Shown: piece after piece, positions 27,946 through 46,263 of the stretch
How positions within the stretch are numbered: the stretch's first letter is position 1
How the letters are laid out: every line of letters starts with the position of its first letter
Origin: a phage
Length of the DNA: 64,000 nt
Assembly: GCA_014687725.1 (NCBI GenBank)
Contig: GCA_014687725.1_4094.1
Direction: 5' to 3' (one strand)
Notes under the pieces: model-generated
Databases searched by the model: none
What the model saw: only the letters and a program-made list of their open reading frames with translations
Told to the model about the DNA's origin: nothing
Translations under genes and position numbers: made by a program

Positions 27946-28685
27946 AAAATTTTATTTTGTTTTTTCCAATAGTTCCCCTACCGCGTGGGGATAGTTTCCC
28001 CGCAGTATCTGGAGTTAGATTTTTCTGAATCTGGAATCATTATCTTATAAACTGGGGGCAATGTCAACGGCCTGGACGGATATTTTTAAAAATTTTTTCA
28101 GTACTGAATTTTGGGCGTAACTATGCACCCGGTGGGCTTGAGTCTTTCTCGACTTGATGGAACTATTATACAGTACTGGAAAAATAAAGCAATACCCTGG
28201 AAGCAAAAAAGTTTTAATTAATTTGCTTGCTATCCTGGGCCGGACTATGGTACTATATTTCAGTACTGAGAAAGTGCTTTTACCTGCTAGGGTGCGGGAG
28301 TGTATCCTTTTTAAATTTACTGAATTTTGGGCGTAGTTCCGCACCCTGTGGGTTAGTGCCTTGTGTCCGGCTTATGTAGTAATTATACGCTTTTTCAGGA
28401 TCAAGTCAATACCTAAAAACAAAATAATTGAAAATAATTTAACGCGTTTAAACGGCCCGTAAAGCCCTGGAATGATTGGAATGGTGCAAATGTATAGCTT
28501 AGGTGTATTAATGCGTTAGAATGCGTCTGAGGCCGTTTTATGGGGTGTAGTAGTGATTTGGTTGATTCAGTACTGAATGATAGTACTACTATATAGAAAG
28601 ATAGTTCCCCTGGATGGTTGCAGTACTGAAAGATAGTTCCCCTATATAGAAAGAAAACTATTTTAAAAGTATTTGTAGAAAGTAC

Positions 28686-28713
28686 TTGCAAAGTATTGGG
28701 AAAGGTGTAGAAT
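28686..28713 (+). promoter_or_regulatory. early-type sigma70-like promoter (type 1)
   Basis: AGTACTTGCAA -35, 16-nt spacer, TAGAAT -10, then gTTTTACATcgag and 5' hairpin; this architecture recurs >20 times in 28.7-47 kb. Confidence 0.5.
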
Positions 28714-28770
28714 GTTTTACATCGAGACGGGGGATACGCTCCCGACTCACTTTTAAAAGAGATTAAAACG

Positions 28771-29133
28771 ATGGCGACTCAAATCAATACTATCATGCTT
28801 AACCTGGTTTCTTTCCGTGAAGAGATGAAAGATCTTCCCGCTGAGACTGTACGGATTCACATTGCAGCTTATCGGGAATTGATTGCAATGCTGCCGCTTA
28901 AGCGTGAACAGTACGCCGCTACTGCAATGCTGGACGCAATGATACATAAGATGATCCAGACTGATTTAACGATGGCTTATCAGTACATGGGCGAAATGTT
29001 TGCAGTGTATAGCAAGCCAGTACCAGGAATGGAAAGTACAGAAGTATTACACGGCTTAAACTTAAAACAAGATGCATGGGATAATATGCCTCGTTTCCTG
29101 GTATGGGCTGATAGTGGAAAGATTTACGAATAA
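28771..29133 (+). CDS. hypothetical early protein
   Basis: Own promoter and leader hairpin; ATG start. Confidence 0.6.
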   Translation: MATQINTIMLNLVSFREEMKDLPAETVRIHIAAYRELIAMLPLKREQYAATAMLDAMIHKMIQTDLTMAYQYMGEMFAVYSKPVPGMESTEVLHGLNLKQDAWDNMPRFLVWADSGKIYE

Positions 29134-29147
29134 GTTTTTAAAAGTAC

Positions 29148-29175
29148 TTGCAAAGTAAGTTTAAAGGCGTATAAT
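29148..29175 (+). promoter_or_regulatory. early-type promoter (type 1)
   Basis: TTGCAA, 16 nt, TATAAT. Confidence 0.5.
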
Positions 29176-29187
29176 ACTTTACATCAG

Positions 29188-29207
29188 GTGGGGAATAGTT
29201 CCCCACT
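29188..29207 (+). promoter_or_regulatory. conserved 5'-UTR stem-loop (example copy)
   Basis: GTGGGGA-atagt-TCCCCAC between -10 box and SD. Confidence 0.5.
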
Positions 29208-29226
29208 ATATAAGAGGATTAAAAAA

Positions 29227-29466
29227 ATGGCTAAATCAAAAATGTTCTTAGGTCACAAAAACAAAACTCAATGGAATGTAAGCCTTTGGATTAATAACGA
29301 CGAATCATTATACCGGTTGGCCCAGGACTTTATTGCCGCTAACACTAATCGTAATGATGCGGCCCGTCATATGATGCTATTTTTAGAACAGACTGGACAA
29401 GATAAAACACCGGACGGCTTTAAGTATAGCACTACTGCGATCCGTGCGGCGATGGTTGGAATGTAA
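29227..29466 (+). CDS. hypothetical early protein
   Basis: Track ORF starts at GTG inside the leader hairpin; ATG at 29227 follows AAGAGGA. Confidence 0.55.
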   Translation: MAKSKMFLGHKNKTQWNVSLWINNDESLYRLAQDFIAANTNRNDAARHMMLFLEQTGQDKTPDGFKYSTTAIRAAMVGM

Positions 29467-29548
29467 GAGAATAGATTAAAAGTACTATTGCACGGTGATA
29501 GTACTTTATAATAGATTTCTTTTATACAACAACGATAGGGGTAACAGC

Positions 29549-29815
29549 ATGAATATTATATACTTTGCAACGCGTGAACTTGCTCGGATTGCCGCACGCC
29601 AGGACGGGGCGACGTTTAAAGATATGGGCGTACAATCTGAACGTGGTAAACGTTGGGCCGTAGTAAAGCAAAGTACAGCCCGTTCAATTCAGTACTGGCT
29701 ATCTGCTTTAAAGCGTCCTGATAGTGTATCGCGTCGCGTGGTAGAAATAAAGCACGACCGCAAGGGCAACCGCGTTACTGTGTACAGTACTAAAAAGATT
29801 GCAGTACTTGAATAA
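29549..29815 (+). CDS. hypothetical early protein, paralog of 41865-42260
   Basis: Shared YATRE.ARI.AR..GA.FKDMG...RWAV and HDRKGNRVTVYS blocks. Confidence 0.55.
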   Translation: MNIIYFATRELARIAARQDGATFKDMGVQSERGKRWAVVKQSTARSIQYWLSALKRPDSVSRRVVEIKHDRKGNRVTVYSTKKIAVLE

Positions 29816-29901
29816 AAAGTACTTGCAAACTATGTTTAAGGGCGTATAATGTTTTACATCGAGAGCGGGAATAGTTCCCGCCTATAACCAGGAGTAATAA
29901 A

Positions 29902-30132
29902 ATGACCAATATGTATATGACTGAAGTTAAAACCGTAAAAGATACTACCACTAATAAAACTACTTACTTACAGCGGATCTGCGGTGTATGGCAACGTATC
30001 AGCAAATCAAAGTACTTTAAATTAACATCATATGCCAATCGTTCGGATTCATTCAGTACTGAAATAAAAGGTAATAAAGTACACCAATACGGCACTTATT
30101 ATTATTATAGCCTGGAGGCGATTGCAGTATAA
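29902..30132 (+). CDS. hypothetical early protein
   Basis: Promoter + GCGGGAA-tag-TTCCCGC leader hairpin + AGGAG. Confidence 0.55.
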   Translation: MTNMYMTEVKTVKDTTTNKTTYLQRICGVWQRISKSKYFKLTSYANRSDSFSTEIKGNKVHQYGTYYYYSLEAIAV

Positions 30133-30159
30133 GTAGTTTACAAATCTTTACAATTGCCA

Positions 30160-30350
30160 GTATTGACTTATTTTGTCAGTACTGGCATAATGTATTCATT
30201 GGCAGATAAGCCGTAGCCCATAGGGTGCGGGAGTGTATCTATAGAAAAATTAGTTTAGTATAGTTACAATTGTGCACCCGGTGGGTTAGCTGTTGTCATG
30301 GGGTATATTATGCCAGTACTTGATAATGCTGTCAATACTTTTTTTTAATA
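30160..30350 (+). repeat. structured repeat element with own promoter (candidate small RNA)
   Basis: TTGACT, 17 nt, CATAAT, then inverted arms CCCATAGGGTGC ... GCACCCGGTGGG and U-run; arms recur elsewhere. Confidence 0.35.
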
Positions 30351-30559
30351 TTCAGTACTGAAAACTATTTTTAAAAAGTACTTGCAAACTATGTTTAAAG
30401 GCGTATAATGTTTTACATCAGGACGGGGGACGAAATAAGTAACTTCCCGTTAAGTAGCCCAGGAGTAAGGCACACGAAAAACTCCCCTGATAAAATAGTT
30501 TGACAATTGTTTTTAAAAGCGTATAATACTTACATCAACTACTGAATGAGGGTTACAAA

Positions 30560-31171
30560 ATGAAAACTATCACTACTACTACTTTCGTTATGGATTTTTC
30601 TGAATTGAACGCAGAACAACAAACGTCAGCTATCGAACTGGTTCGGGAACGTGAAAAAAACTCAAACGACAATTATTTTTCTGAAAGTGAAATTGAATAC
30701 TATAAAGAAACAGTACTACCGGAATATGGCATTAATGACGCTGAAATACAATTCAGTGGTTTTTGGTCCCAGGGTGACGGTGCATCAATCAGTACTGACC
30801 ACGTTGACGCAGTGAAGTTTTTACGCAAGGTAAGAGCATTAACTAAGTATCGCTCAATCCGTCACCTGCTGAATGAAGATGATTTGGCGATGAGTGTAAA
30901 GCGTTCTCACTCCCACTACTCGCATGAGAATACTGTAAGCGGGTACATTGAATCGGCTTACACTGATTTAACCGCAAAACAAGAAACGTTAGTTAATGAG
31001 CTTGAGGAACTACTCACTGAAACTATTCGTGAATTGTCCCGCAAGTTGTACCGTGATTTAGAGAATGCATATGAGGATCAATTCACTACTGAAAACATTA
31101 CGGCACTGATTGAGGGTAACGAATATCAATTCAATGTTATTGATGGCGTAGTAGAATCAATCGAATATTAA
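30560..31171 (+). CDS. hypothetical early protein (203 aa)
   Basis: Tandem promoters with structured leader upstream; ATG after GAGGG. Confidence 0.6.
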   Translation: MKTITTTTFVMDFSELNAEQQTSAIELVREREKNSNDNYFSESEIEYYKETVLPEYGINDAEIQFSGFWSQGDGASISTDHVDAVKFLRKVRALTKYRSIRHLLNEDDLAMSVKRSHSHYSHENTVSGYIESAYTDLTAKQETLVNELEELLTETIRELSRKLYRDLENAYEDQFTTENITALIEGNEYQFNVIDGVVESIEY

Positions 31172-31264
31172 TTCAAAAAGTACTTGCAAACTAAGTTTAA
31201 AAGCGTATAATACTTTATATCGAGGCGGGGAATGGTTCCCCGCTCACACTAAAAGGGCAACAAA

Positions 31265-31537
31265 ATGAAAACTTTAAATATCACAACTGCACATCAATTG
31301 GTTCGGGATGCAATGGATCATGTGCAAGATTTCTTCCCTGATGTAAGTGTCGTAACTTATGAAAAAGGTACTTGGACTTATTCAACAATTAATGGTTATG
31401 AGCCTGATTTCGATGATCTGGAAGAAATGGAATTTAATTTTGATCTGCTGAATGATGCCGCCCGTGAAGTTGAAAACGATGTTCAATACATTGATGGTTC
31501 TGTCGCACCTGATGCAGTAAAAGAATTAAAAAACTAA
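31265..31537 (+). CDS. hypothetical acidic protein
   Basis: Promoter + leader hairpin + ATG. Confidence 0.55.
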   Translation: MKTLNITTAHQLVRDAMDHVQDFFPDVSVVTYEKGTWTYSTINGYEPDFDDLEEMEFNFDLLNDAAREVENDVQYIDGSVAPDAVKELKN

Positions 31538-31622
31538 AAAGTACTTGCATTGTAGTTAGATTAACGTATAATACTTTATATCGAGGCGGGGAATGGTTCC
31601 CGCCTTTACTGAGGGTTATCTA

Positions 31623-31883
31623 ATGAGCAAAGTAATTAACTATACAGTGTTAAGCAAGTCATTGTCTATTAGCCAATGTACTGATGGTTATTGGCTTTAT
31701 GATGAAACGCGTGGCATGAATTTAGCTATGCAGGAGAAAACTACTGATGCGGCATATCTTAAAGCACTGGAATACTACCAGAAGCGTTTAAAGGAAGTAG
31801 AAAACGATTATAATAACCTGAAAGCGAAAGTAGATAATTTCGTTGGTCAATTCATCGAGGAAGACGACGACATACAATATTGA
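31623..31883 (+). CDS. hypothetical early protein
   Basis: Start moved to ATG downstream of leader hairpin. Confidence 0.5.
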   Translation: MSKVINYTVLSKSLSISQCTDGYWLYDETRGMNLAMQEKTTDAAYLKALEYYQKRLKEVENDYNNLKAKVDNFVGQFIEEDDDIQY

Positions 31884-31968
31884 AAAAGTACTTGCAATTA
31901 GTTTTTAGTACTGTATAATGGTTTACATAGAGGGGGAAATGGTTCTCCCTGGTAATGAGGAAAATAAA

Positions 31969-32190
31969 ATGGCTAATATCACTACTCTTTCCCAACTGGA
32001 AGCACTGGTTAAATCTATGCGGGAACATGCCGACAAAATCGGCGTACAAGATCCAGCCGTTTGCTTCTGCGACGAATTGAATGATGATACCCTGGTAATA
32101 GCAGAAGTCCAGGACGTTTCTAACTATTCCTCGCGTTACACTGGCGGCGTAGCAAATAAAGGTGACTTCTGTTTATACCTTACAAAATAA
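31969..32190 (+). CDS. hypothetical early protein
   Basis: Start moved to MANITTL after AATGAGGAAAATAAA. Confidence 0.5.
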   Translation: MANITTLSQLEALVKSMREHADKIGVQDPAVCFCDELNDDTLVIAEVQDVSNYSSRYTGGVANKGDFCLYLTK

Positions 32191-32194
32191 CAAC

Positions 32195-32225
32195 GCGGGG
32201 AGATAATAACTCCCCGTTACTTTTT
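32195..32225 (+). terminator. intrinsic terminator
   Basis: GGGGAG-ataataa-CTCCCC then gttaCTTTTT. Confidence 0.5.
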
Positions 32226-32433
32226 CAGTACTGAATCATTTAATAGACGGATCTCGGCACCCGGTGGGTTAGTGACTGTTTCGTCTTGATGTAGTAATTA
32301 TGCCAGTACTGGATGCACTTGTCAACAACTATTTTTCAAATACTTTTTATTAAAATACTTGCAATTAGTTTTTAAACGCGTATAATGTTTTGCATAGGGG
32401 GAGCGGTTCCCCTGGTAACTAAGGAATAAGAAA

Positions 32434-32670
32434 ATGGTCGAACAAATCAAATCAACGTCTTCGAATGTAACGGGAACGGTAGCACACTTTACTAGTGATG
32501 AATCGCGGGGCGTTCCCTATTGTGCTGTACATGTAAACACTGAGGGTAACTACTGGTTTACGGTTTACGGATCATATTCATTTGGACGGCCAGGGCATCA
32601 AAAAATTCTGGATAAAGTACAACCAACGGGTAAAAATATCACTGCCGAAATGTTTTATAAAAAATCATAA
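32434..32670 (+). CDS. hypothetical early protein
   Basis: Promoter + hairpin + AAGGAATAAGAAAATG. Confidence 0.55.
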   Translation: MVEQIKSTSSNVTGTVAHFTSDESRGVPYCAVHVNTEGNYWFTVYGSYSFGRPGHQKILDKVQPTGKNITAEMFYKKS

Positions 32671-32754
32671 AGTACTTGATAATAGTTTTTAGTACTGTAT
32701 AATATTTTACATCGCAAGGGGGAGCGGTTCCCCCTGGTAACTAAGGATAATCAA

Positions 32755-33054
32755 ATGAAAATTGCAATCATCGCCCTGGCTTTATCTGTTTCCTCTTTCG
32801 CTGTTAATGCGTCATTAGATGTAAGTAGTGAAAAATTCATTCAGTGCACTGTTGCAATGACCGATGAAAGTACTGGCGAGATTGTTTTAAAGGATTTAGA
32901 GATCCAGCCAGAAGCATTTAAAAACGGGCCGTTCCATGAAGAAGACGAAAAAGGTAGCACGACAATTTATTACGATGCAAGTACTAAACGCGGTTCGGTC
33001 ACTGTTATGGATACTGAGAAAGTTACATTCACTGGCGTAATTAATTGTTTATAA
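32755..33054 (+). CDS. secreted/periplasmic small protein (predicted signal peptide)
   Basis: MKIAIIALALSVSSFAVNA/SLD: n-h-c regions with AxA-like cleavage site. Confidence 0.6.
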   Translation: MKIAIIALALSVSSFAVNASLDVSSEKFIQCTVAMTDESTGEIVLKDLEIQPEAFKNGPFHEEDEKGSTTIYYDASTKRGSVTVMDTEKVTFTGVINCL

Positions 33055-33071
33055 TATAGTACTGAATCACT

Positions 33072-33100
33072 AGCCCACTATAAGAAGTGGGCTTTTTTTA
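33072..33100 (+). terminator. intrinsic terminator
   Basis: AGCCCACT-ataagaa-GTGGGCT + TTTTTTT. Confidence 0.65.
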
Positions 33101-33292
33101 TTGTAGTATTGTAGTACTGGTATACTTTGAAAATAGTTTTAAAAAAGTAGTTGACATTACCAGGGAAAAGCGTAGAATGTATTACATCAAGACGGGGAAC
33201 ACTAAGTAGACCGCCAGTAAGTCGAATGAAAAACTGGACACGTCAAACAAACTTTGATAAACTAACTTAAACTTTAATTGAGGATTTATAAA

Positions 33293-33775
33293 ATGGCTAA
33301 TGTAAAATCATTTCTGAAAGCACTGATTTCTAACGATACTGTTATTGCTGCTGAATTGCTGGCTGACCTGGATAATGATACCATGAAAGCAGTACGCAAC
33401 AATTTTAACATTGCTTACAGTGAAGCGAAAGAACTACAAGCCAAAAAGGTAGCAGAACTGGAAGAACAGAAAAAAGCCCGTGAAGCAGAACTGCAAGCAA
33501 CAATAGAAAGTATTCAGGCGGCGGTGTCTGGTTTAGATCTGGAAGTGGTTATTGAAATGGCACATAAAGCCCTGGCGGTTAAGTACGGTGAAGATAAGCC
33601 GGAATCTAAGCCTAAAAAATGGATTCAAGAACGTGTTACGGTTGTCCTTGATAACGGGGAAGAACATTTGATTCCTGTACGCGGTAACTGCATTGCGGTA
33701 GTACTGGATGCAATCAAAGAAAGCGGTATGACTCGCGAGGAATGGATCGAAGCTCACCGCAAAGTTGAAGCATAA
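33293..33775 (+). CDS. hypothetical protein (160 aa), coiled-coil-like central region
   Basis: Start moved to MANVKSF after GAGGA; K/E/A-rich heptad-like stretch. Confidence 0.55.
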   Translation: MANVKSFLKALISNDTVIAAELLADLDNDTMKAVRNNFNIAYSEAKELQAKKVAELEEQKKAREAELQATIESIQAAVSGLDLEVVIEMAHKALAVKYGEDKPESKPKKWIQERVTVVLDNGEEHLIPVRGNCIAVVLDAIKESGMTREEWIEAHRKVEA

Positions 33776-33796
33776 CAATTAAAGTACTGAATCACT

Positions 33797-33823
33797 AGCC
33801 CACTGTATAAGTGGGCTTTTTTG
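33797..33823 (+). terminator. intrinsic terminator
   Basis: AGCCCACT-gtata-AGTGGGCT + TTTTTT. Confidence 0.65.
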
Positions 33824-34059
33824 TGTTTATCGTTTACCAGGCCACCAGCACCGCCTAGAATCGATTCTAACGCATTAAACTGATTATCTGATGCATCGCC
33901 CTAGCTGGTGGCGTTAAGGTCGTTAGAATGCGATTGAGGACGTTTAAAGTATTTTGCAAAAAGTAATAAAAAGTACTTGCACGATTAAGAGATTAGCGTA
34001 TAATGTTTTACATCGAGAGGGGGAAACGGTTCTCCTTCCAAATCAAAGGAATCAAAACA

Positions 34060-34287
34060 ATGGCTATCGTAATCGCTTATGTAACTGGTACTACTGGCAC
34101 TTCTTCTACTGTTGCTGTAATTACCAACAAGAAAGGTGCGGAATTACATTCTGCAATGGATACCTGGGCGGTAAATGAGTTCGGTCAGTGGGCAAGTGTA
34201 GCATATGTTGAAACCTATCAAGTGCCAACCATTAGCTTAACGGATCTCGGTGTAGATCGTATCCTTTGCCTGGATGAATTAAATTAA
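34060..34287 (+). CDS. hypothetical early protein
   Basis: Start moved to MAIVIAY downstream of leader hairpin. Confidence 0.5.
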   Translation: MAIVIAYVTGTTGTSSTVAVITNKKGAELHSAMDTWAVNEFGQWASVAYVETYQVPTISLTDLGVDRILCLDELN

Positions 34288-34373
34288 AAAAGTACTTGCA
34301 AAGTAAATCAGATAAAGTATAATACATTACATCAAGGGGAGAAATGGTTCTCCCTGATAATGAGGAAACTAAT

Positions 34374-34517
34374 ATGAAAACTTGTCAATGTGGTAAAAAA
34401 TCTATTACTGGTTTAAAGCGGGGCGTTGCTCTTTGCCAGTACCATTATAATTTACAAGTATGGGGTAAAGAATGGGCCGACCAGGTGGAAGCAGCAAAGA
34501 AAGCAAAAAGTAAGTAA
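34374..34517 (+). CDS. small Cys-containing protein (47 aa)
   Basis: Below track cutoff; full promoter-hairpin-SD-ATG context; CQCG...C.YH pattern. Confidence 0.4.
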   Translation: MKTCQCGKKSITGLKRGVALCQYHYNLQVWGKEWADQVEAAKKAKSK

Positions 34518-34536
34518 AATTATTATCACAGTACTA

Positions 34537-34565
34537 TTGACATAGATTGATAGTACTGGCATAAT
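34537..34565 (+). promoter_or_regulatory. early promoter (type 2, AGTACT-flanked)
   Basis: cAGTACTaTTGACA, 17 nt, gatAGTACTGG-CATAAT; no 5' hairpin; recurs at ~34820, ~37690, ~37970, ~38500, ~45410. Confidence 0.5.
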
Positions 34566-34598
34566 AGATTTTATCAAGACAACTAAGAGGAAACAATA

Positions 34599-34811
34599 AT
34601 GGCTATCATCACAAAAATCAAAGTAAACAAATCACTGGTTAAGCTGGAAGAAGTGAAAGAAGGTTATAAAGTATCGTGGTGCGGCATGTATCGGATTTTT
34701 ACAGATGTTGACGATGCAATCAATTACTACACTGACACGGTAAAAAACTTTGTTCGTGCTGATGTGGTTATGGCAGTGGCAACACACAAAGCATCGAAAG
34801 AAAGTAAGTAA
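34599..34811 (+). CDS. hypothetical early protein, paralog of 37763-37942
   Basis: Both start MAII.K; type-2 promoter upstream. Confidence 0.55.
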   Translation: MAIITKIKVNKSLVKLEEVKEGYKVSWCGMYRIFTDVDDAINYYTDTVKNFVRADVVMAVATHKASKESK

Positions 34812-34892
34812 AAATATTATCACAGTACTATTGACATAGTTTGATAGTACTGGCATAATAGATTTTATCAAGACAACTAAGAGGAAATTAAA

Positions 34893-35237
34893 ATGGCTAA
34901 TATCAACACTATCGCAAAACAAAATATCAACCTGTCTTCTGTTGAAGTTGTACATATTGCCGCTCGGCGTTGGTTCCAGGCTTCATATGGTAACACTTAT
35001 TTCTCTTTAAGTGTAGACGTAGAAATTGATGGTAATTTTATTGAAGTAGTAAACGTGCCGTTCCAATATGGATACGGGGATCACTTTGACACTGTAGCAA
35101 TGGAAGAATTTAGCAAGGTTATTAATATGGAAGATAAAGAGTTTTTACGCGGTTCTTATCTTTCCCGTTTTTGCCGTGACAATAATATCACTGTTTACAG
35201 TTCGGTAACTGATGTTAAACGCAAAAAAGATCTTTAA
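34893..35237 (+). CDS. hypothetical protein, paralog of 41446-41769
   Basis: Shared W...GNTY.S..V and F.YGYG and ITVY..V.DVKRKKD blocks. Confidence 0.6.
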   Translation: MANINTIAKQNINLSSVEVVHIAARRWFQASYGNTYFSLSVDVEIDGNFIEVVNVPFQYGYGDHFDTVAMEEFSKVINMEDKEFLRGSYLSRFCRDNNITVYSSVTDVKRKKDL

Positions 35238-35317
35238 TTAGCTTTACTTTATGCAGATACTTTGATATAGTGTCTGCATAGGGGAAAGAAATTAAATTAA
35301 CTTAAGAGGATAGTATA

Positions 35318-35587: not shown

Positions 35588-35638
35588 TCAAAACATCGTT
35601 AGCGGTCGATTTAGGCCGCTTATATTGGGGATTATACC

Positions 35639-35911: not shown

Positions 35912-35916
35912 TTAAT

Positions 35917-39077: not shown

Positions 39078-39140
39078 AAAGTATTGACAGTACTGAAAGA
39101 TAGTGTATAATATTTTATATCTTAACTGAGGATTGAAATC

Positions 39141-39497
39141 ATGGGAATACAACATATCACGCGTACTACTGACAATGGCGAGATCACTGGCTATCAAGTA
39201 CAGGGCAAAGTAGCACAATTGCAGTACTGGTTTGTTAAACGTGGAATCATTGCACCGGATCTTGATTATGACCGTGTAGCGTTTATTGATTCTCTTTATG
39301 TTGATCCTGATAGTCGGGGCAATGGTGAAGGTAACGAATTAATGAATGCCTTTATTGATGCCGCCGATGATTCAGATTGTATCATTTTAGAATGCGATAC
39401 GGGAGAAGATAACGCCTTTAATCTTAAAGAATGGTACGAAGGTTTCGGATTCGAGGTACTGATCGATAGTGAATATCCTATCATGATTTTATCATAG
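39141..39497 (+). CDS. GNAT-like N-acetyltransferase (small)
   Basis: VAFIDSLYVDPDSRGNGEGNELMNAF ... NAFNLKEWYEGFGF resembles GNAT motifs A/B. Confidence 0.5.
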   Translation: MGIQHITRTTDNGEITGYQVQGKVAQLQYWFVKRGIIAPDLDYDRVAFIDSLYVDPDSRGNGEGNELMNAFIDAADDSDCIILECDTGEDNAFNLKEWYEGFGFEVLIDSEYPIMILS

Positions 39498-39575
39498 TAC
39501 TTGCATTTAGTTTTCAGTACTGTTATAGTACTTACATCAAGGGGAAACATCTTCCCCTACTAAGAGGAAATAAAA

Positions 39576-39764
39576 ATGGAAAACTTATCAAGTATTTTAG
39601 TACAAGATGATTTCGGTAATCCTGGAAGTGCTATCATTGTTCGGGGTAATAAAGCAACATTTGTTATTGCTGGTGGACCTGTACAGCGTAGCATTAAAAA
39701 TAATGCTGTTACCATTAATAATGTACGCTATCGCTTAGATAAAGAATTGATTCATAAACTTTAA
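39576..39764 (+). CDS. hypothetical early protein
   Basis: Promoter + hairpin + AAGAGGAAATAAAAATG. Confidence 0.5.
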   Translation: MENLSSILVQDDFGNPGSAIIVRGNKATFVIAGGPVQRSIKNNAVTINNVRYRLDKELIHKL

Positions 39765-39848
39765 AAAGTATTTGACAATAGATTATAGTACTGTATAATA
39801 AGTTACATGAAGGGGTGAAATGATTCTCCCCACTAAGAGGAAAGAAAA

Positions 39849-40061
39849 ATGCAAGGTCAACTAATCGTTCGTAAATGGTCTGATACTAACGAAAAACCGT
39901 GGGATGTACAATACATCGGACCGGATGGGGTATCACGTTATCAGCCTGGCGTAACGCATAGTACTGAGCAATTCGCAAACGCTCACCGCGAACGCCTGTT
40001 AGAATCCATGAAACAGGGATTCTGTGAAAAATTCATTCAAGATCATTGGCTGAAAGATTAA
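39849..40061 (+). CDS. hypothetical early protein
   Basis: Promoter + hairpin + SD. Confidence 0.55.
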   Translation: MQGQLIVRKWSDTNEKPWDVQYIGPDGVSRYQPGVTHSTEQFANAHRERLLESMKQGFCEKFIQDHWLKD

Positions 40062-40078
40062 TATAAGGAGTACAGCTT

Positions 40079-40171
40079 ATGCAAATGAATCCGATGATTA
40101 TTGTTTTAGCTGTACTTATGATCATTCATGCAATAGTAGAAGTATTAACGCAATCAGGAGTAATAAAATGA
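40079..40171 (+). CDS. very small hydrophobic peptide (30 aa)
   Basis: AAGGAG 8 nt upstream; ATGA-coupled to next ORF; speculative. Confidence 0.3.
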   Translation: MQMNPMIIVLAVLMIIHAIVEVLTQSGVIK

Positions 40172-40341
40172 TTCAAGTAGAATTATCAGTACTGAAAGAT
40201 CTGTTTTATCGGTTAGGTACTACTGGCGAGTATCCTAAAAGTGATACCGCAAAACTTTTTGTATCACTCGACTTATGGCAACGCGAACAATTAGTAATGT
40301 CCTGGCGTAAAGGTAAAGCAGATAGCGAGGTGAAAGCATGA
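40168..40341 (+). CDS. small protein (57 aa)
   Basis: Below track cutoff; ATGA coupling both sides. Confidence 0.4.
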   Translation: MIQVELSVLKDLFYRLGTTGEYPKSDTAKLFVSLDLWQREQLVMSWRKGKADSEVKA

Positions 40342-40487
40342 AAGAATTCTTATTCGAAGTAGTGTTTCAAGGTGTCGGTAGTAACCAACTGATTCGCTCA
40401 AGTGGTTACAATGTTAACCAGGCATGGAATAACATTAAACAAATGTACCCGAACGCTATCACCTATCGCAACCCGAAACAAGTTTAA
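40338..40487 (+). CDS. small protein (49 aa)
   Basis: Below track cutoff; followed by terminator/promoter hairpin. Confidence 0.4.
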   Translation: MKEFLFEVVFQGVGSNQLIRSSGYNVNQAWNNIKQMYPNAITYRNPKQV

Positions 40488-40501
40488 AAATAATTGAAAA
40501 A

Positions 40502-40534
40502 GGGATTGACTCCGGTCAGTCCCTTTGCTATTAT
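40502..40534 (+). promoter_or_regulatory. terminator/promoter element (copy 5)
   Basis: GGGATTGAC-TCCG-GTCAGTCCC, TTTG, TTGACT/17 nt/TATTAT. Confidence 0.55.
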
Positions 40535-40635
40535 ATACGCATAGAAACAAATCAGCCCACAGGGTGCATAAATGTATCTATTGTTTGCTGGTGGCTAGTA
40601 CTATCAAGTACTGAAAACTATTTTTAAAAAAGTAC

Positions 40636-40663
40636 TTGCATTGTACTTAGAATCAAGTATAAT
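40636..40663 (+). promoter_or_regulatory. early promoter P1 of tandem pair
   Basis: TTGCAT, 16 nt, TATAAT; upstream A/T-rich tract and TCAGTACTGA. Confidence 0.5.
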
Positions 40664-40751
40664 GTTTTACATCAGGACGGGGAACGAAACAAGTAACCCC
40701 GTTAAGTAGTCCAGGAGTAAGACATAAGAAAACCTCCCCTGATAAAATAGT

Positions 40752-40779
40752 TTGACAATAGAAAGTAAACGAGTATAAT
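40752..40779 (+). promoter_or_regulatory. early promoter P2 of tandem pair
   Basis: TTGACA, 16 nt, TATAAT; separated from P1 by a ~60-nt structured leader, duplicated at 30360-30560. Confidence 0.5.
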
Positions 40780-40812
40780 ACTTACATCAACCACTGATAA
40801 GGAAACATTAAA

Positions 40813-41088
40813 ATGCGGATTCTACTGACAGCTAACGAAATCGAACAAGTACTGACTACTAACCTGGAAGACTGGAAACGTGAAGCAGATATCCAGGCGG
40901 TTCAACGGCTTAACGATGAGTTAACGCCGGATGACTTAAGCAAGATTGTAGATCCTCAATTCTACGAAGATATCCACGACACCGCGTTAAGCGTCGAGGA
41001 TGTACTAGATAAGCACTACATTGATATTGATTTGCAGGTTTACGGTCGTAAAAACTTTATCACTATTCACGACATTTACAATAATTAA
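40813..41088 (+). CDS. hypothetical acidic protein
   Basis: ATG after AAGGAAACATTAAA. Confidence 0.55.
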   Translation: MRILLTANEIEQVLTTNLEDWKREADIQAVQRLNDELTPDDLSKIVDPQFYEDIHDTALSVEDVLDKHYIDIDLQVYGRKNFITIHDIYNN

Positions 41089-41174
41089 GTATTGACAAAG
41101 TATCTTAGTACTGTATAATAGTTTACATCGAGAGGGGGAATGGTTCCCCTCCTAACAAAGAGAGAGAAATAAAA

Positions 41175-41357
41175 ATGGCTAAATGCACTATCTGTAAGAA
41201 AGAAATCGTATTAGTTCCAAGTGCCCGTGAACGTGCCGCTCGGTTCGGTGGCAAACCGTCAGACTATACAAAAATGTTTACTGTCCATGCAGCTTGCCAG
41301 GTAGCAAAACGTTCACAAGAAAGCGTAGAATTAATGCGTAAACTTTCCAAAAAATAA
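41175..41357 (+). CDS. hypothetical small protein
   Basis: Promoter + hairpin + GAGAGAGAAATAAAAATG. Confidence 0.5.
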   Translation: MAKCTICKKEIVLVPSARERAARFGGKPSDYTKMFTVHAACQVAKRSQESVELMRKLSKK

Positions 41358-41445
41358 GTATTGACAAAGTATCTTAGTACTGTATAATAGTTTACATCAA
41401 GTGAGGGGAAACGGTTCCCCTCCTAACAAAGAGAGAGAAATAAAA

Positions 41446-41769
41446 ATGGCTATGATCCTTGCCCAGAAAGTAGAACTGAAAATTGTAACCTCCTTTGACA
41501 TTAAAGTTAATCGGTGGACTGATTCACACGGCAATACTTACCACTCTTGCTACGTGTCTGCGTTAATTGGTGATCGTTGGGAAGACCTGGGACATGAAAC
41601 CTTTACATACGGTTACGGCACACAAGGCGAATACACGGGCTTGGAGATCATTAAAGAAACCGTTATAGGTTTCAACCCGAAAGAAACAGTTATTCACCGC
41701 ATCGAGGAAGAGATCAACAAAGAAATAACAGTTCGATACTACGATGTAAAACGTAAGAAAGATATGTAA
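41446..41769 (+). CDS. hypothetical protein, paralog of 34893-35237
   Basis: Start moved to MAMILAQ; duplicated promoter/leader with 41175 gene. Confidence 0.55.
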   Translation: MAMILAQKVELKIVTSFDIKVNRWTDSHGNTYHSCYVSALIGDRWEDLGHETFTYGYGTQGEYTGLEIIKETVIGFNPKETVIHRIEEEINKEITVRYYDVKRKKDM

Positions 41770-41864
41770 TAGAATCCATTTAAAGTACTATTTGACATTG
41801 CCCAGATAGTACTTTATAATAGACTCTAACTTGTAGTACTAACTCAACTAATAGGATGTATACC

Positions 41865-42260
41865 ATGATTACTAAATTCTACGCTACCCGTGAAGCTGCC
41901 CGTATTGTTGCACGCGAGGAAGGAGCAGCATTTAAAGACATGGGCAAAGATGCACCGAAAGGCCAACGCTGGGCCGTACAGTTCAAAGAGATCTCTGATA
42001 TTGTGAATTCACCTGAGCCAGTACTAACAGCAGCAGAACTAAAACGAGCGGATTTACTGGCGTCAATACTTGATGCACAAGATGAGTTTATCGCTGATTC
42101 TGATATCAAAGTACAGACAAACCATACCGCTTGGACTCACGCGGATCACCTGGCAAACCTGAAGCGTCCAAGTGAACTGGTACGCAACCAGAAAGAGATC
42201 CGACACGACCGTAAGGGTAATCGTGTAACAGTATACAGTAAACGCCGCCAGGTTATCTAA
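41865..42260 (+). CDS. hypothetical protein, paralog of 29549-29815
   Basis: Start moved to second ATG (AGGA upstream). Confidence 0.55.
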   Translation: MITKFYATREAARIVAREEGAAFKDMGKDAPKGQRWAVQFKEISDIVNSPEPVLTAAELKRADLLASILDAQDEFIADSDIKVQTNHTAWTHADHLANLKRPSELVRNQKEIRHDRKGNRVTVYSKRRQVI

Positions 42261-42282
42261 TAACTTGCAGTACTAACAACAC

Positions 42283-42307
42283 GGCGGGATCAGTTCCCGC
42301 CTTTTTT
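42283..42307 (+). terminator. intrinsic terminator
   Basis: GGCGGGA-tcagt-TCCCGCC + TTTTTT. Confidence 0.65.
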
Positions 42308-42321
42308 ATAGGACAAACAAA

Positions 42322-42576
42322 ATGATTAAGGTTCAACTATATAAAGATAATATCTTGCGGGTACACTATAAAGCCCCTCAGAGAATCATCACAAAGGCCG
42401 TACAGCTTGCTAATGAGTTTATTAATGGTAACCTATTACCAAGGAAGTTAAGCAACGGAAAACTGCGTGTAATCGATGTAGACACTAACAACAGAATAGT
42501 AATTGAGAACACAGGAAAGATAAACCTATATGAACACCAACAATATAATAAGAAAATAAAACTAATATCACGTTGA
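42322..42576 (+). CDS. hypothetical protein
   Basis: ATG after GGACAAACAAA. Confidence 0.5.
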   Translation: MIKVQLYKDNILRVHYKAPQRIITKAVQLANEFINGNLLPRKLSNGKLRVIDVDTNNRIVIENTGKINLYEHQQYNKKIKLISR

Positions 42577-42629
42577 CAGTACTCAATTGTTTTAGTACTA
42601 TGTACATATACCAACACGGGAGAAACAAA

Positions 42630-42848
42630 ATGAAATTATCTAAAATCGAAAAGAAAACTATTGATGAAGCAGTTAAGCACGGTTATACCTTTCGTAATGA
42701 TTCACATTTTACCAATTTTCAACAAGGGTATCGTACTATTAAAAAACTCATTGACAAAGGTTTATTAGTTGAAGTCAATAACGGCAATGGTATTGAGTAT
42801 CAACCAACACAAGACGCATTTTATTTTAAGAAATATAATATTATCTAA
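42630..42848 (+). CDS. hypothetical protein, tandem duplicate pair member
   Basis: Promoter TTGACA/17/TACTAT and leader duplicated at 42849-42905. Confidence 0.5.
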   Translation: MKLSKIEKKTIDEAVKHGYTFRNDSHFTNFQQGYRTIKKLIDKGLLVEVNNGNGIEYQPTQDAFYFKKYNII

Positions 42849-42905
42849 TTGACAGTACTCAAATGTTTTAGTACTATATGTACATACCAACACGGGGAAA
42901 ACAAA

Positions 42906-43148
42906 ATGATTACTTTAGAAAAACGTATCAAAGAAACTACATCGCTGGTGGAACTGTTAACAGTACTGAAATGCCGTACTACTCGGTTTAGTACACCGGA
43001 CTTTATTAATATGGTTGATGTTAACGGTCGTTATCGCATTGCAGTAGAACAAGGAACAGCGAAAGTATTCAGTACTAAAAACACTAAGGAAGTGATTCAT
43101 GCTGTAAGTGTTAAAAAAGTAGTTGCCATTGATAGTAAAGTACTGTAA
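42906..43148 (+). CDS. hypothetical protein, tandem duplicate pair member
   Basis: Same promoter/leader as previous gene. Confidence 0.5.
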   Translation: MITLEKRIKETTSLVELLTVLKCRTTRFSTPDFINMVDVNGRYRIAVEQGTAKVFSTKNTKEVIHAVSVKKVVAIDSKVL

Positions 43149-43179
43149 GATAGTTTCATTAACTCAAGGAGAACATGCA

Positions 43180-43764
43180 ATGCGTAATTATACTAAATTC
43201 ATCCGTACCCTGTCAGAAATGGAAACCAACAAAGAGATCCTTTCAGCTTGTCGGTTAGCTGGTCTGGAGATCATCGGTGCGGGTTCTTCCCGTATTGTAT
43301 TCGCTTTAAATGATCGGTTAGTGATCAAGGTCGCGAATTGTGATGCGGGTGTAGAACAAAATGAAACTGAATGTAAGGTATGGAATTTTTTAGATTATGA
43401 CCGCCCTCAATTGAAACAGTACTTTGCAAAGGTGCATATGCATTTATGCGATCCTGATAATATGTTTATCGTTATGGATCGGTTGAGTACTGCAAGTAAA
43501 GGCAGTGTAAAGCACGTAAACGCGTGCAATGAATTAAAGTACAATATTAAACGTAATGCCATTGAACGCCAGCACCGCTTTGCTGATGCACTACAACACG
43601 TTGATGATACATTATCAACACTAACGATAAGAGATATCAGAAAACAGAATATCGGCCAGGATCGTAATGGCCTTATTAAAGTACTTGATTACGGTTTAAC
43701 CCGCAATATCTGGAATCAGTACTATAAAAAGCGTGATGTAGAAGCAAGTAAGGTAACACGATAA
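43180..43764 (+). CDS. protein-kinase-like protein (atypical Ser/Thr kinase fold)
   Basis: IIGAGSSRIVF (Gly-rich loop), LVIKV (beta3 Lys), RDIRKQNIG (catalytic loop), KVLDYG (DFG-like); AAGGAG SD. Confidence 0.55.
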   Translation: MRNYTKFIRTLSEMETNKEILSACRLAGLEIIGAGSSRIVFALNDRLVIKVANCDAGVEQNETECKVWNFLDYDRPQLKQYFAKVHMHLCDPDNMFIVMDRLSTASKGSVKHVNACNELKYNIKRNAIERQHRFADALQHVDDTLSTLTIRDIRKQNIGQDRNGLIKVLDYGLTRNIWNQYYKKRDVEASKVTR

Positions 43765-43777
43765 AAAAGATTAAAAA

Positions 43778-43812
43778 AGGGATTGACTCCGGTCAGTCCC
43801 TTTGCTATTATA
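43778..43812 (+). promoter_or_regulatory. terminator/promoter element (copy 6)
   Basis: GGGATTGACTCCGGTCAGTCCC + TTTGCTATTAT. Confidence 0.55.
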
Positions 43813-43984
43813 TATTCATTGAGAGATAACTCACTGACCCATAGGGTGCGGAAGTGTATCTATTATATAAGTATTCAGTACTGAAAACTATTTTAAAAAA
43901 GTACTTGCAATGTACTTAGAATCAAGTATAATGTTTTACATAGAGAGGGGGAAATGGTTCTCCCTGGTAATAAGGAATAAAATC

Positions 43985-44206
43985 ATGACTACAATGACTT
44001 GCATTTACGCTTCCAATCTTCTGAATGATGCGGCCTTTAATGTTGATTCAGAATATCAATGTTATCGGGATGAAAATAAAAAAGTTTTTGTAGTTGATAA
44101 TAATGGTTTCCATATTGAATTACAATCCGGTTTCACTGGTGTTGATGGTAAATCAGTGTGGGGCGTACAGGATGATAAAGGCACATATCATTTTAAACGT
44201 AATTAA
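43985..44206 (+). CDS. hypothetical early protein
   Basis: Start moved to MTTMTC downstream of leader hairpin. Confidence 0.5.
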   Translation: MTTMTCIYASNLLNDAAFNVDSEYQCYRDENKKVFVVDNNGFHIELQSGFTGVDGKSVWGVQDDKGTYHFKRN

Positions 44207-44290
44207 GTATTGACAAAGTATATCAGTACTGTATAATAGTTTACATCAAGGGGAGAATAGTTCTCCCCGATACTAAAAGGAAACAAAATT

Positions 44291-44563
44291 ATGTCCAGCT
44301 ACTCCGCTACTATGATCATTAAAGATATGAACGGTAATCCTACTTCTGCTGGTGGATCATTTGGAAACATTAATTTAGATGGTCGGTTATCCATGCAATC
44401 AGCCATCGATGCAGCGAAAGAAGTTTTTAAGAATGAATGTACTGTTAGTAAGCTGGATTATATGGGATTCGCTATCGAGAAAACTAATCGTTTTGTGAAC
44501 TACAAAAATCCACTGATGATTGATACTAACCTGAAAGCTAACGAAGTGGGGTACTTATTATGA
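44291..44563 (+). CDS. hypothetical early protein
   Basis: Promoter + hairpin + AAAGGAAACAAAATTATG. Confidence 0.55.
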   Translation: MSSYSATMIIKDMNGNPTSAGGSFGNINLDGRLSMQSAIDAAKEVFKNECTVSKLDYMGFAIEKTNRFVNYKNPLMIDTNLKANEVGYLL

Positions 44564-44751
44564 CAGTAGAAGAAGTTAAAAAAGTACTGGCAGTACTACG
44601 CTATCATAATCATTGCAAGGTGAAGAATGATCCTGATTATGTTGATTCATCCCTGGAGGAAGACACATTAAACGCAATAAGCCATATGCAAACATTAGCA
44701 AAGCGTATGACCGAAAAGAATAGACCGGACTATATCGGAAATAAAATTTAA
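44560..44751 (+). CDS. hypothetical early protein
   Basis: ATGA overlap with previous. Confidence 0.5.
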   Translation: MTVEEVKKVLAVLRYHNHCKVKNDPDYVDSSLEEDTLNAISHMQTLAKRMTEKNRPDYIGNKI

Positions 44752-44837
44752 AAAGTACTTGCATTGTAGTTAGATTAACGTATAATGTTTTACATAGAGC
44801 GGGGGAACTATTCCCCCGCCAGTCCAGGAGATACACC

Positions 44838-45101
44838 ATGAACACTATCGAAATCACTATCAATGCACACGTATACGACAACGTAGTACTGCAAACTACT
44901 ATGACCGCTAATGATACCAGTACTTTGCGGAATACTGTTATTAGTGCCGTATGTGCCGCTATCGGTGATGTCGCCCTGGAAAATGCAGAACACATCAACA
45001 ACGGTTTCACTATGTGCAAACGTGATAACGCAAAACATATCATCGTAGAAGGTTACGGCGGTGTAGAATATAATCTTTATATGAAAAAAGTACTTGCATA
45101 A
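44838..45101 (+). CDS. hypothetical early protein
   Basis: Promoter + GCGGGGGAA-cta-TTCCCCCGC hairpin + AGGAG. Confidence 0.55.
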   Translation: MNTIEITINAHVYDNVVLQTTMTANDTSTLRNTVISAVCAAIGDVALENAEHINNGFTMCKRDNAKHIIVEGYGGVEYNLYMKKVLA

Positions 45102-45168
45102 TAACTAAAACAAAGTATAATGTTTTGCATAGGGGGAGATATCCTCCCCCACTAAAAGGAGTAATAAA

Positions 45169-45393
45169 ATGGCTAACTTTGATGAACTGATGCGGGAAGT
45201 AGCTAACCTGGCAGAAGAGAAGAAATCATTCGATTCTATCTATAACACCGCTCACCGTGATTCAGTACTGGCATGTACTCAGGATCAAAAAGATGAACTA
45301 ATCGCCACATATCATGAAGCATGGAAGTACTACCGCCAATGGGAGAAAGAAGAAAGCGAGTCTACCATCAACGGCATCAATAATCTAATCTAA
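45169..45393 (+). CDS. hypothetical early protein
   Basis: Promoter + hairpin + AAAGGAGTAATAAAATG. Confidence 0.55.
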   Translation: MANFDELMREVANLAEEKKSFDSIYNTAHRDSVLACTQDQKDELIATYHEAWKYYRQWEKEESESTINGINNLI

Positions 45394-45469
45394 AAGTTTT
45401 ATTTCAGTACTATTGACATAGCTTGATAGTACTGATGTAATAACTTTACTAACTACAAGGGGAAACATA

Positions 45470-45727
45470 ATGGAACAGTTCACACAATATCGGGTAAATC
45501 CTCAAGCTATGGCCTACGTAGAAGACCATAAAACGTTACCAGTACTAACACCAATTAAAGGCCATATCTATCGTGCAATGTCATGGAATACGGCCCAGGA
45601 TGGATATACTACCGCTGGCGTGGGTATGTATTGCGGGAATGGTGAATGGTTTGATCCAAATAATCCGGTAGCCATTGACAGTACTGAAAAAATGAAATGG
45701 GCCGACTACATCGAAGATATTTCATAA
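45470..45727 (+). CDS. hypothetical early protein
   Basis: Type-2 promoter; ATG after AAGGGGAAACATA. Confidence 0.55.
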   Translation: MEQFTQYRVNPQAMAYVEDHKTLPVLTPIKGHIYRAMSWNTAQDGYTTAGVGMYCGNGEWFDPNNPVAIDSTEKMKWADYIEDIS

Positions 45728-45816
45728 AACTATTTGACAGTACTAACCAGTAATGTATAATGTTTTACATAGAGCGGGGGAATAGTTCTCCCGCCAATAG
45801 TTTGGAGTAAAACATT

Positions 45817-46017
45817 ATGTCTATCGCTATCGCCCTGGTTGAAGTACTGAAAGAAGCTAAAGCCAACCTTATCGATGTACAGATTAAGGAATTACAAAAT
45901 GGTTTAATCGGCTGTACTTGTACCGCTGGTGGAGCGGCAGACTATCGGGAATTCGAATCACTTGAATCGATGGTCCGTTATCTTACCATGATCGTAGAAG
46001 ATTGGAGAATCATCTAA
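45817..46017 (+). CDS. hypothetical early protein
   Basis: Promoter + hairpin + TGGAGTAAAACATTATG. Confidence 0.5.
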   Translation: MSIAIALVEVLKEAKANLIDVQIKELQNGLIGCTCTAGGAADYREFESLESMVRYLTMIVEDWRII

Positions 46018-46035
46018 CAAAAAAGAATAAAAAAA

Positions 46036-46069
46036 GGGATTGACTCCGGTCAGTCCCTTTGCTATTATA
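46036..46069 (+). promoter_or_regulatory. terminator/promoter element (copy 7)
   Basis: GGGATTGACTCCGGTCAGTCCC + TTTGCTATTAT. Confidence 0.55.
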
Positions 46070-46263
46070 TACGCATAGACAAAAACTAGCCCACTGGGTG
46101 CAGGAGTGTATCTAAAATATATAGTTAATAACGGTGAGTAACTATCTGCTGGTGGGGTGAAAACTATTAATAAAAAAAGTATTGACAAAGTATATCAGTA
46201 CTGCAATAATGTATCTCGTAGGGCGGCAATGGTGCGACGGCCCACAAAGTTAGGAGATTCAAA

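Follow-up and report, generated by a model that had tools for sequence, protein, structure and literature searches.

We describe here an undescribed structured RNA module of ~45 nt that always follows closely on a strong bacterial-type promoter of its own and is present at about ten copies in the direct terminal repeat (DTR) of RaK2-like jumbo phages of enterobacteria. It was studied in 64,000 nucleotides of phage DNA (contig GCA_014687725.1_4094.1 of NCBI GenBank assembly GCA_014687725.1), referred to below as the window. We give even chances to the reading that each copy is an immediate-early transcription unit yielding an abundant structured RNA, whose bistable fold is read by a conserved partner.

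Positions 28000–34000 of the window are 88–95% identical to jumbo coliphages of the 121Q/PBECO4/G17/Sharanji group (genus Asteriusvirus) and, as judged by sequence, the window is Asteriusvirus-like jumbo coliphage (121Q/PBECO4 group) DNA. In the relative vB_Ec-M-J the DTR is annotated at 1–21525. Upon alignment, position 1 corresponded to window position 27043 and position 21525 to ~47520, and the stretch between these points is the counterpart of the ~20.5-kb Asteriusvirus DTR. Because the vB_Ec-M-J DTR ends align to these positions, all module copies (28100–46140) are placed inside the DTR, that is, in the immediate-early region of RaK2-like jumbo phages. DTRs of ~20–22 kb have been reported for Sharanji (PMC11895373), fEgEco12 (PMC13070987) and CBB (PMC5259590). 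The early cassette architecture of the DTR is highly regular. It holds ~55 small plus strand open reading frames (ORFs), nearly every one of which has its own near-consensus sigma70 promoter and a hairpin in the 5' untranslated region (5'-UTR). An early promoter repeat, AAAGTACTTGCA-N-TATAATGTTTTACAT, was found in 29 copies within 27400–46650 (e.g. 31885–31934); behind it come a GC-rich 5'-UTR hairpin (GGGGAAATGGTTCTCCC type) and then a Shine-Dalgarno sequence before nearly every small ORF.

Scanning both strands of the window for the core pattern CCCAYWGGGTGC with at most one mismatch resulted in 10 matches, against 0.25 on average and never more than 2 in shuffled sequence (0 of 100 shuffles reached 10). 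Cores start at 30217, 36868, 38550, 40556, 43838 and 46090 on the plus strand and are found at 28125, 28341, 30274 and 32257 on the minus strand. The dispersed block in both orientations that a reading of the sequence alone, without database searches (the sequence-only reading), had pointed out is thereby borne out at the positions given there, as it also is by a covariance model (R1) built from the copies of relatives. In the window R1 identified 11 copies, all within 28109–46117, namely the 10 pattern copies and a degenerate plus copy at 28282–28311, and gave no match in the remaining 46 kb. The copies are thus restricted to one 18-kb stretch of the DTR, and all of them occur at the same positions in vB_Ec-M-J, which is 93% identical. 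The conserved part of the module comprises ~45 nt only; the corresponding probe sequence for the module RNA is GCACCCTRTGGG.

Copies were aligned in register together with 80 nt of upstream sequence, and 71 distinct copies from at least five phage genera were scanned for a sigma70 promoter. A recognisable promoter was present in nearly all of them, in most cases close to TTGAC(A/T)-17-(T/C)AT(A/T)AT, with 16–18 nt between the -35 and -10 boxes and mostly with the TG of an extended -10. The predicted start is a conserved C-A-T, and the core follows 15–23 nt downstream of it, a distance that was also the condition set for the scan. Orientation of the module relative to the promoter was identical in every copy examined. 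At the plus copies that begin at 36806, 40499, 43776 and 46033 the terminator hairpin of the upstream gene, behind which comes a T-rich tail, contains the -35 box in its stem, and TTGACT lies 17 nt upstream of TATTAT; the terminator/promoter hairpins predicted earlier upstream of plus copies were confirmed at these four places. The terminator-embedded design was also found in RaK2, GAP32 and fHe-Yen9-04. The other 7 of the 11 window copies have an ordinary promoter of the 'CCAGTACTGGCATAAT' class instead of the composite. In all five solo plus copies the next gene has a promoter of its own within 30–70 nt downstream, and the module is therefore not needed for expression of that gene. The minus copy at 32241 heads into a bidirectional terminator (32196–32216), and the other minus copies are either part of convergent pairs or aimed at the left end of the DTR.

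The very 5' end of the module is formed by a hairpin of 3–5 bp (P1) whose stem sequence is specific to the copy (GGC/GCC, GAG/CUC, GACG/CGUC, AGCA/UGCU, UCCA/UGGA, ACCG/CGGU and others) and whose loop is rich in purines (AGAUAA, GAGAAA, GCGAAA, AGAACAA). Among 22 copies that align without gaps and were selected for being in register, 92% of cells were paired, with GC, CG, AU and UA types at each pair, and 43 double-sided changes were counted against 14 in shuffles (0 of 500). As a check on this selected subset, a model-based alignment of 79 distinct copies, which itself leans towards the structure of the model, gave 89.5% paired cells (at most 47% in slid registers) and 111 double changes (39.6 in shuffles, of which 0 of 500 came as high). 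It is through P1, with double-sided changes at all 4 pairs, that the module qualifies as a structured RNA. The covariation analysis that the sequence-only reading had proposed thus came out in favor of structure, and a role at the RNA level is plausible because the 5' hairpin covaries strongly across ~80 distinct copies. In roughly a quarter of the copies P1 is replaced by an unstructured A-rich leader, e.g. AUAGAAACAAAUCAG.

P1 is followed by a YUAR linker and then by CCC-N3/4-GGG-U-G. Among 96 distinct copies CCC and GGG were kept, the loop between them being 3 or 4 nt long and variable (ACA, AUA, ACC, AUU, UAUA, UAGA, UCAA, UUUA, AAAA), and a compensated CCU...AGG was found in two independent copies. 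The arrangement fits a mini-hairpin of 3–4 bp, termed P2. An alternative helix (P3) is formed by GGGUG and tail positions 20–24 (Y-R-Y-C-Y); its five inner positions can pair in 87–100% of copies, compared to at most 58% in slid registers, and tail positions 20 and 21 vary by transitions only. RNAalifold without imposed structure predicted P1 and P3. Single-sequence folds resulted in P2 for 38, P3 for 17 and neither for 16 copies. In a few copies a strong P3 is combined with a T-run and resembles a terminator (28289–28308 in the window; 17329 in GAP32). Two further candidate features were rejected. A helix closing leader on tail was attractive in single folds but was dropped as a copy-specific pairing, a copy's own tail pairing no better than the tails of other copies (-4.12 vs -4.08 kcal/mol; 2114 of 5000 permutations as good or better). 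A conserved mini-ORF (Shine-Dalgarno-like GGGUG, NUG at 17–19, Met-Tyr-Leu) was dismissed: no more than 58% of copies carry G19, and in several the second codon is a stop.

When 2.9 million viral contigs were scanned for the pattern, matches came only from jumbo-phage contigs of 345–378 kb, in each of which they fell within one ~20-kb stretch, apart from an unrelated coding sequence that turned up three times. A BLAST search with one 53-nt copy as query, covering 50,697 phage records, returned 69 records, a count that is doubled where a record holds both DTR copies. All but one were jumbo phages, the exception being Pantoea phage Nufs112, which matched partially and weakly (E = 4); the module is thus restricted to RaK2-like jumbo phages of Enterobacterales. 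The hosts of phages carrying the module comprise Escherichia, Klebsiella, Salmonella, Erwinia, Yersinia, Cronobacter, Serratia and Pectobacterium, and the module was always found in the DTR region. R1 gave 110 hits once several metagenomic relatives and the DTR regions of RaK2, GAP32, fHe-Yen9-04, Munch, EJP2 and RCIP0023 were included in its search. The matched stretches are almost always unannotated, with small ORFs called across the module in a few records. No module match was obtained in 5,426 complete E. coli genomes by a search blind to matches below ~20 nt, and a host origin was rejected on this basis.

The Rfam search that had been suggested for the repeat returned no match to it at gathering or at permissive thresholds: Rfam 15 gave 0 matches in the whole window at gathering thresholds, and at E <= 5 there were 4 sub-threshold hits within 27000–48600, none of which overlapped an element. 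Two sub-threshold hits to Trp_leader (33760–33824, 29.9 bits; 33027–33100, 20.6 bits; gathering score 41) fall on terminators AGCCCACTnnnnAAGTGGGCTTTTTT and are most likely chance resemblance of a terminator. A literature search found the motif in no relevant context. An EcoKI site (AAC N6 GTGC) was rejected, as the spacing is N7 in CTAACCCATAGGGTGC and AAC is absent, by eye, from many copies. To our knowledge, none of the RfaH ops element, enterobacterial CRISPR repeats and CsrA GGA sites fits all copies.

One combination of promoter and leader (…GGCATAAT…ATCAAGACAAC…TAA) recurs in the DTR. At 34527, 34821 and 37681 it leads into a Shine-Dalgarno sequence and ATG, and at 38483, 30345 (minus) and 32335 (minus) the identical promoter and leader are followed by the core. 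As promoter and leader are shared with mRNAs for small proteins, the module takes the place of the ORF in an early-gene cassette and the RNA would itself be the product. The DTR accordingly looks, at the level of sequence, like a series of cassettes, each with a small protein or a module RNA as its payload. Fixed coupling to the promoter, P1 covariation, a P2 loop of variable length with compensated stems and wobble-compatible variation of the tail all argue for a transcribed element acting at the RNA level rather than a DNA repeat or mobile element. The copy number, the strength of the promoters and the location in DNA that enters first and in double dose suggest an immediate-early RNA made in quantity. 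In the proposed mechanism, host RNA polymerase with sigma70 would initiate at the near-consensus promoter and the first ~45 nt of the transcript would be the module. With ~10 genes per DTR, and so ~20 per packaged genome, an abundant immediate-early RNA could result, either freed as a short RNA or retained as a 5' leader. The invariant CCC/GGGUG would be read by a conserved partner, protein or RNA, and would toggle between the P2 and P3 folds. We infer in this way that the promoters fire, that the RNA accumulates and that P2 and P3 alternate, and the same applies to every statement on function made here. Action in trans, be it by a processed small RNA, a decoy or a tag, is favored because downstream genes have their own promoters and because some copies are antisense.

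The module resembles known phage small and leader RNAs made from constitutive sigma70 promoters, namely lambda OOP RNA, the 6S RNA of lambda PR' and ncRNA001/002 of PA5oct, in that a strong promoter of host type would give a short non-coding transcript, and the copy at 32241 (minus) is laid out as promoter, RNA and terminator. PA5oct is a distant Pseudomonas relative with two very highly transcribed non-coding RNAs in its DTR, which account for up to about 5% of phage reads (PMC7318152). Homology to these was rejected, as neither the motif nor R1 gave a hit there. The module differs from phage small RNAs in having no sequence or Rfam similarity to them, in its ~10 copies per DTR, most of which are without a terminator, and in the lack of an evident antisense target.

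Several observations weigh against a factor-read, bistable RNA as the product. In five annotated genomes a terminator-like site was found within ~130 nt in only 9 of 53 copies, among them, in the window, 32241 (minus) and the partial copy at 28282 (plus). Most copies therefore lack a defined 3' end and a discrete small RNA would need processing. Given also a conserved part of only ~45 nt, the single RNA species of ~150 nt that had been proposed from the sequence is not supported. P2 and P3 are mutually exclusive because both use GGG, and neither is strongly supported by compensation, since their 5' strand is invariant; compensatory changes of P2 are confined to the two copies mentioned and those of P3 are one-sided. 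Most pairs of P3 are G-U, and in the majority of copies this helix is thermodynamically weak. All early transcripts here start with a hairpin, so P1 may be a generic 5' stabiliser that says little about the core. The literature search returned no transcriptome of Asteriusvirus, Alcyoneusvirus, Mimasvirus or Eneladusvirus and no expression data for any phage of the group. We rate the module as an early regulatory cassette with an RNA payload, amounting to a new family of phage non-coding RNA (ncRNA). A bolder version is put forward tentatively, and we lean against it: a multigene family of immediate-early, very strongly transcribed, bistable RNAs of ~45 nt might carry a CCC/GGGUG switch that is recognised by a conserved host or phage factor (e.g. 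as a decoy for an RNA-binding or defence protein of the host, or as a tag on phage transcripts), the convergent pairs close to the genome end might give rise to double-stranded or long-hairpin RNA, and the whole might represent a new class of phage ncRNA for host take-over.

Action in cis, on elongation, is kept alive by the P2/P3 alternative and the terminator-like variants. In this case the nascent module would act on its own polymerase or on a loaded factor and would decide between an early stop, at P3 with or without a U-run, and read-through of the terminators in the DTR. We consider this unlikely, even though the module is located just past early promoters and, in four plus copies, directly after a terminator, where transcription re-starts. 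P2 and P3 are exclusive, P3 and a T-run together resemble a terminator in some copies, and G8 G9 ... U18 G19, from computed base frequencies, fits the elemental pause consensus G-10 Y-1 G+1; only 58% of copies, however, have G19, and most P3 hairpins have no U-run. The minus copies, moreover, face no gene but a strong bidirectional terminator (32241, minus) or an opposing promoter, each downstream gene has its own promoter, and the distance from start to core varies (15–23 nt). Similarity to lambda nut boxA/boxB, HK022 put and the BglG ribonucleic antiterminator (RAT) extends to the position past early promoters, the small hairpins and the two exclusive pairings. The module differs from these in that no boxA-like sequence was seen by eye, its hairpin loop is unconserved and its copies face both ways, some of them into terminators.

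Core and tail might, alternatively, act as DNA, as a site of protein binding or recombination in the DTR. The sequence-only reading had noted both arms around a short spacer at two places, where a long hairpin could form, and folding as RNA supported this at 30197–30302 (-43.7 kcal/mol, z = -5.8, 0 of 200 shuffles) and at 28270–28375 (-36.3 kcal/mol, z = -2.9). These hairpins arise because two complete units of promoter and element face each other and are not a property of the element. For the pair at 30160–30350 a promoter and a U-run of its own had been claimed. The plus promoter is present, and there are in fact two convergent promoters (30163–30191, plus; 30335–30307, minus), but the supposed U-run (30340–30347) is an A/T tract upstream of the minus promoter that no terminator hairpin precedes. 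Facing pairs form palindromes of ~180 bp and are found 1–4 kb from the left end of the DTR in every genus examined. Together with the confinement of the copies to the DTR, and with the iteron-like tandem repeats and the switch in strand bias that adjoin its left end, this would suit a site acting as DNA, be it an operator or roadblock for early promoters, a crossover point at which cassettes are shuffled or part of the replication or packaging signals, with the pairs serving as large palindromes. We hold such a site to be improbable. Strict orientation relative to the promoter in ~100 copies is not expected of a pure DNA site, CCC/GGG spacing of 3 or 4 bp and the compensated CCU/AGG fit a hairpin rather than a dimeric DNA site, variation in the tail takes the form of wobble-compatible transitions, and convergent transcripts are unable to prime divergent replication.

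A crossover role would parallel the promoter early stem-loop elements (PeSLs) of T4-like phages, which are thought to mediate shuffling (PMC4122927). PeSLs are short conserved intergenic modules in which a terminator stem-loop is joined to a sigma70 early promoter and which are repeated between small early genes without known function in a plastic region (PMC2839356, PMC4122927). The front ends of the four plus copies with the -35 box inside a hairpin (36806, 40499, 43776 and 46033) are of this type, being terminator stem-loops joined to sigma70 early promoters and repeated between early genes. PeSLs are not known from these descriptions to carry a conserved transcribed RNA motif (PMC2839356, PMC4122927). 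The module, on its side, has its conserved structured part downstream of the start and also occurs behind ordinary promoters, antisense and in convergent pairs. Breakpoints between the window and vB_Ec-M-J were located in intergenic promoter regions.

A selfish dispersed repeat with no phage function, of the kind of repetitive extragenic palindromic sequences (REP), bacterial interspersed mosaic elements (BIME) or miniature inverted-repeat transposable elements (MITE), as had been put forward for the copies outside 30160–30350, is very improbable. The module is short, intergenic, multi-copy, present in both orientations and hairpin-forming where two copies face, as such repeats are. Single units, however, show no terminal inverted repeats or target-site duplications; the flanks of 80 aligned copies consist of a promoter upstream and an A/T-rich tail downstream. 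They are always fused to a promoter in fixed orientation, the core stays constant over at least eight host genera while flanks and P1 diverge with compensation, and no copies were found beyond the DTR, in E. coli genomes or in other phages searched. Confinement to 18 kb and the positions shared with vB_Ec-M-J point the same way. Comparison of close relatives showed neither presence/absence polymorphism with target duplications nor an associated transposase. REP/BIME are imperfect palindromes, ~35 nt long, that are located at gene 3' ends on host chromosomes; a single module is no palindrome but a mini-hairpin of 3–4 bp with a variable 5' hairpin, it is located downstream of a promoter and it has no match in the 5,426 E. 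coli genomes.

Many RaK2-like jumbo phages (121Q, PBECO4, RaK2, K64-1, GAP32, CBB and others) are now being isolated with a view to therapy, and the 20-kb DTR that enters first carries almost no annotation other than 'hypothetical protein', if any. Some ten intergenic gaps of this DTR are found here to hold a conserved, promoter-driven RNA module that is common to phages of at least eight enterobacterial genera and present neither in Rfam nor in the published genome papers searched. R1 is ready for use in annotation, and the module is a cheap target for study of the earliest minutes of jumbo-phage infection. If the RNA should prove abundant and bound by a specific factor, an RNA layer would be added to host take-over by these phages.

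The individual copies are listed in Table 1. As far as its layout in the sequence tells, unit 6 is the only window copy arranged like a discrete small-RNA gene (~100 nt).

Table 1. Copies of the module in the window, with their promoters, sequence elements, surroundings and R1 scores.
Unit	Positions	Strand	Promoter	5' hairpin or leader	Core	Tail	Surroundings	R1
1	28109–28192	-	TTGCTT-16-TATAAT	GUC/GAC	CCCACCGGGTGC	ACGCCCAAAA	points to DTR left end	28109–28155, 46.9 bits, E = 6e-11
2	28282–28311	+			CCTGCTAGGGTGCGGGAGTGTATCC (degenerate partial copy), then TTTTT		faces unit 3; GGGUGC/GUAUCC hairpin and T-run, terminator-like site 28289–28308	17.1 bits, E = 0.033
3	28325–28409	-	TTGACT-16-TATAAT (28409–28382)	GCC/GGC	CCCACAGGGTGC	ACGCCCAAAA		41 bits
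4	30163–30244	+	TTGACT-17-CATAAT with TG (30163–30191)	GGC/GCC, loop AGAUAA	CCCATAGGGTGC	GTATCTAT	converges on unit 5	44.8 bits
5	30258–30335	-	TTGACA-17-CATAAT with TG (30335–30307)	A-rich leader without hairpin	CCCACCGGGTGC	TTGTAACTAT		29.4 bits
6	32196–32325	-	TTGACA-17-CATAAT with TG (32325–32297)	GAC/GUC	CCCACCGGGTGC	CCGTCTAT	then bidirectional terminator 32216–32196	50 bits
7	36806–36895	+	-35 TTGACT inside terminator hairpin of upstream gene (36806–36833); -10 TATTAT	GAG/CUC	CCCACAGGGTGC	GTATCTAT	own promoter of next gene at ~36946	51.2 bits
8	38493–38577	+	TTGACA-17-CATAAT with TG	GACG/CGUC	CCCATAGGGTGC	GTAGCTGT		51.2 bits
9	40499–40583	+	terminator hairpin with embedded -35 (40499–40526)	A-rich leader without hairpin, AUAGAAACAAAUCAG	CCCACAGGGTGC	GTATCTAT	Chi at 40587	34.3 bits
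10	43776–43865	+	terminator hairpin with embedded -35 (43776–43803)	GAG/CUC	CCCATAGGGTGC	GTATCTAT		57.7 bits
11	46033–46117	+	terminator hairpin with embedded -35 (46033–46060)	A-rich leader without hairpin	CCCACTGGGTGC	GTATCTAA	Chi at 46148	32.5 bits

Other signals were observed in the vicinity of the copies. Chi (GCTGGTGG) occurs on the plus strand at 27632, 33904, 38207, 39669, 40587, 42944, 44348, 45925 and 46148 and on the reverse strand at 27620 and 33842. All nine plus strand sites are inside the DTR, although by chance each strand of the whole window should hold only 0.19; an inverted Chi pair, CCACCAGCttgtGCTGGTGG, is located ~580 bp from the left end of the DTR, and in relatives Chi falls within the spacer of several element promoters. 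The enrichment may serve to protect linear ends from RecBCD. AGTACT was counted 252 times in the window compared to 21.6 expected, with 130 occurrences within the DTR (e.g. 28091, 28169, 30180, 30354). The sequence CAGTACTG, with 50 occurrences, is found behind many of the elements and terminators as well as in promoter spacers, to which it contributes the TG of the extended -10.

Directly after two of the elements there is a second repeated non-coding unit (30411–30500 and 40670–40752), which also occurs twice in vB_Ec-M-J. It has its own consensus promoter (30382–30409; 40636–40663), followed by ~80 nt without an ORF and then another promoter. A closing stem AUCAGG/CCUGAU around two hairpins is predicted for it, and no covariation was seen among the 4 copies compared. 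In relatives, the spacers of convergent pairs contain an AT-rich palindrome, GAGAATGATAATCATT, that resembles a Fur box, the consensus of which is GATAATGATAATCATTATC (RaK2 ~6945–6975, fHe-Yen9-04 ~345–365, and two further relatives at ~6085–6105 and ~1285–1300); the convergent pairs of the window are without a Fur-box-like palindrome.

At the left edge of the DTR (27043) gene strand and GC skew both switch, and no ORF is called in vB_Ec-M-J over the first ~1.7 kb (27043–28770). Short tandem repeats are found at this boundary at 26894–26981, 27098–27130 and 27850–27941, comprising 10-nt repeats of the GTAATCA type on both sides of 27043 and 8/24-nt repeats of the GGCTAGACGG type at 27850–27941; they could be packaging or replication signals. 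No tRNA or tmRNA was found in the window. Just outside the DTR the minus strand carries, at 9493–22471, ~10 consecutive ORFs of like size (251–439 amino acids, mostly 380–440) that are probably a paralogous array, and at the equivalent place in GAP32 an RCC1-like protein and a virion protein are annotated.

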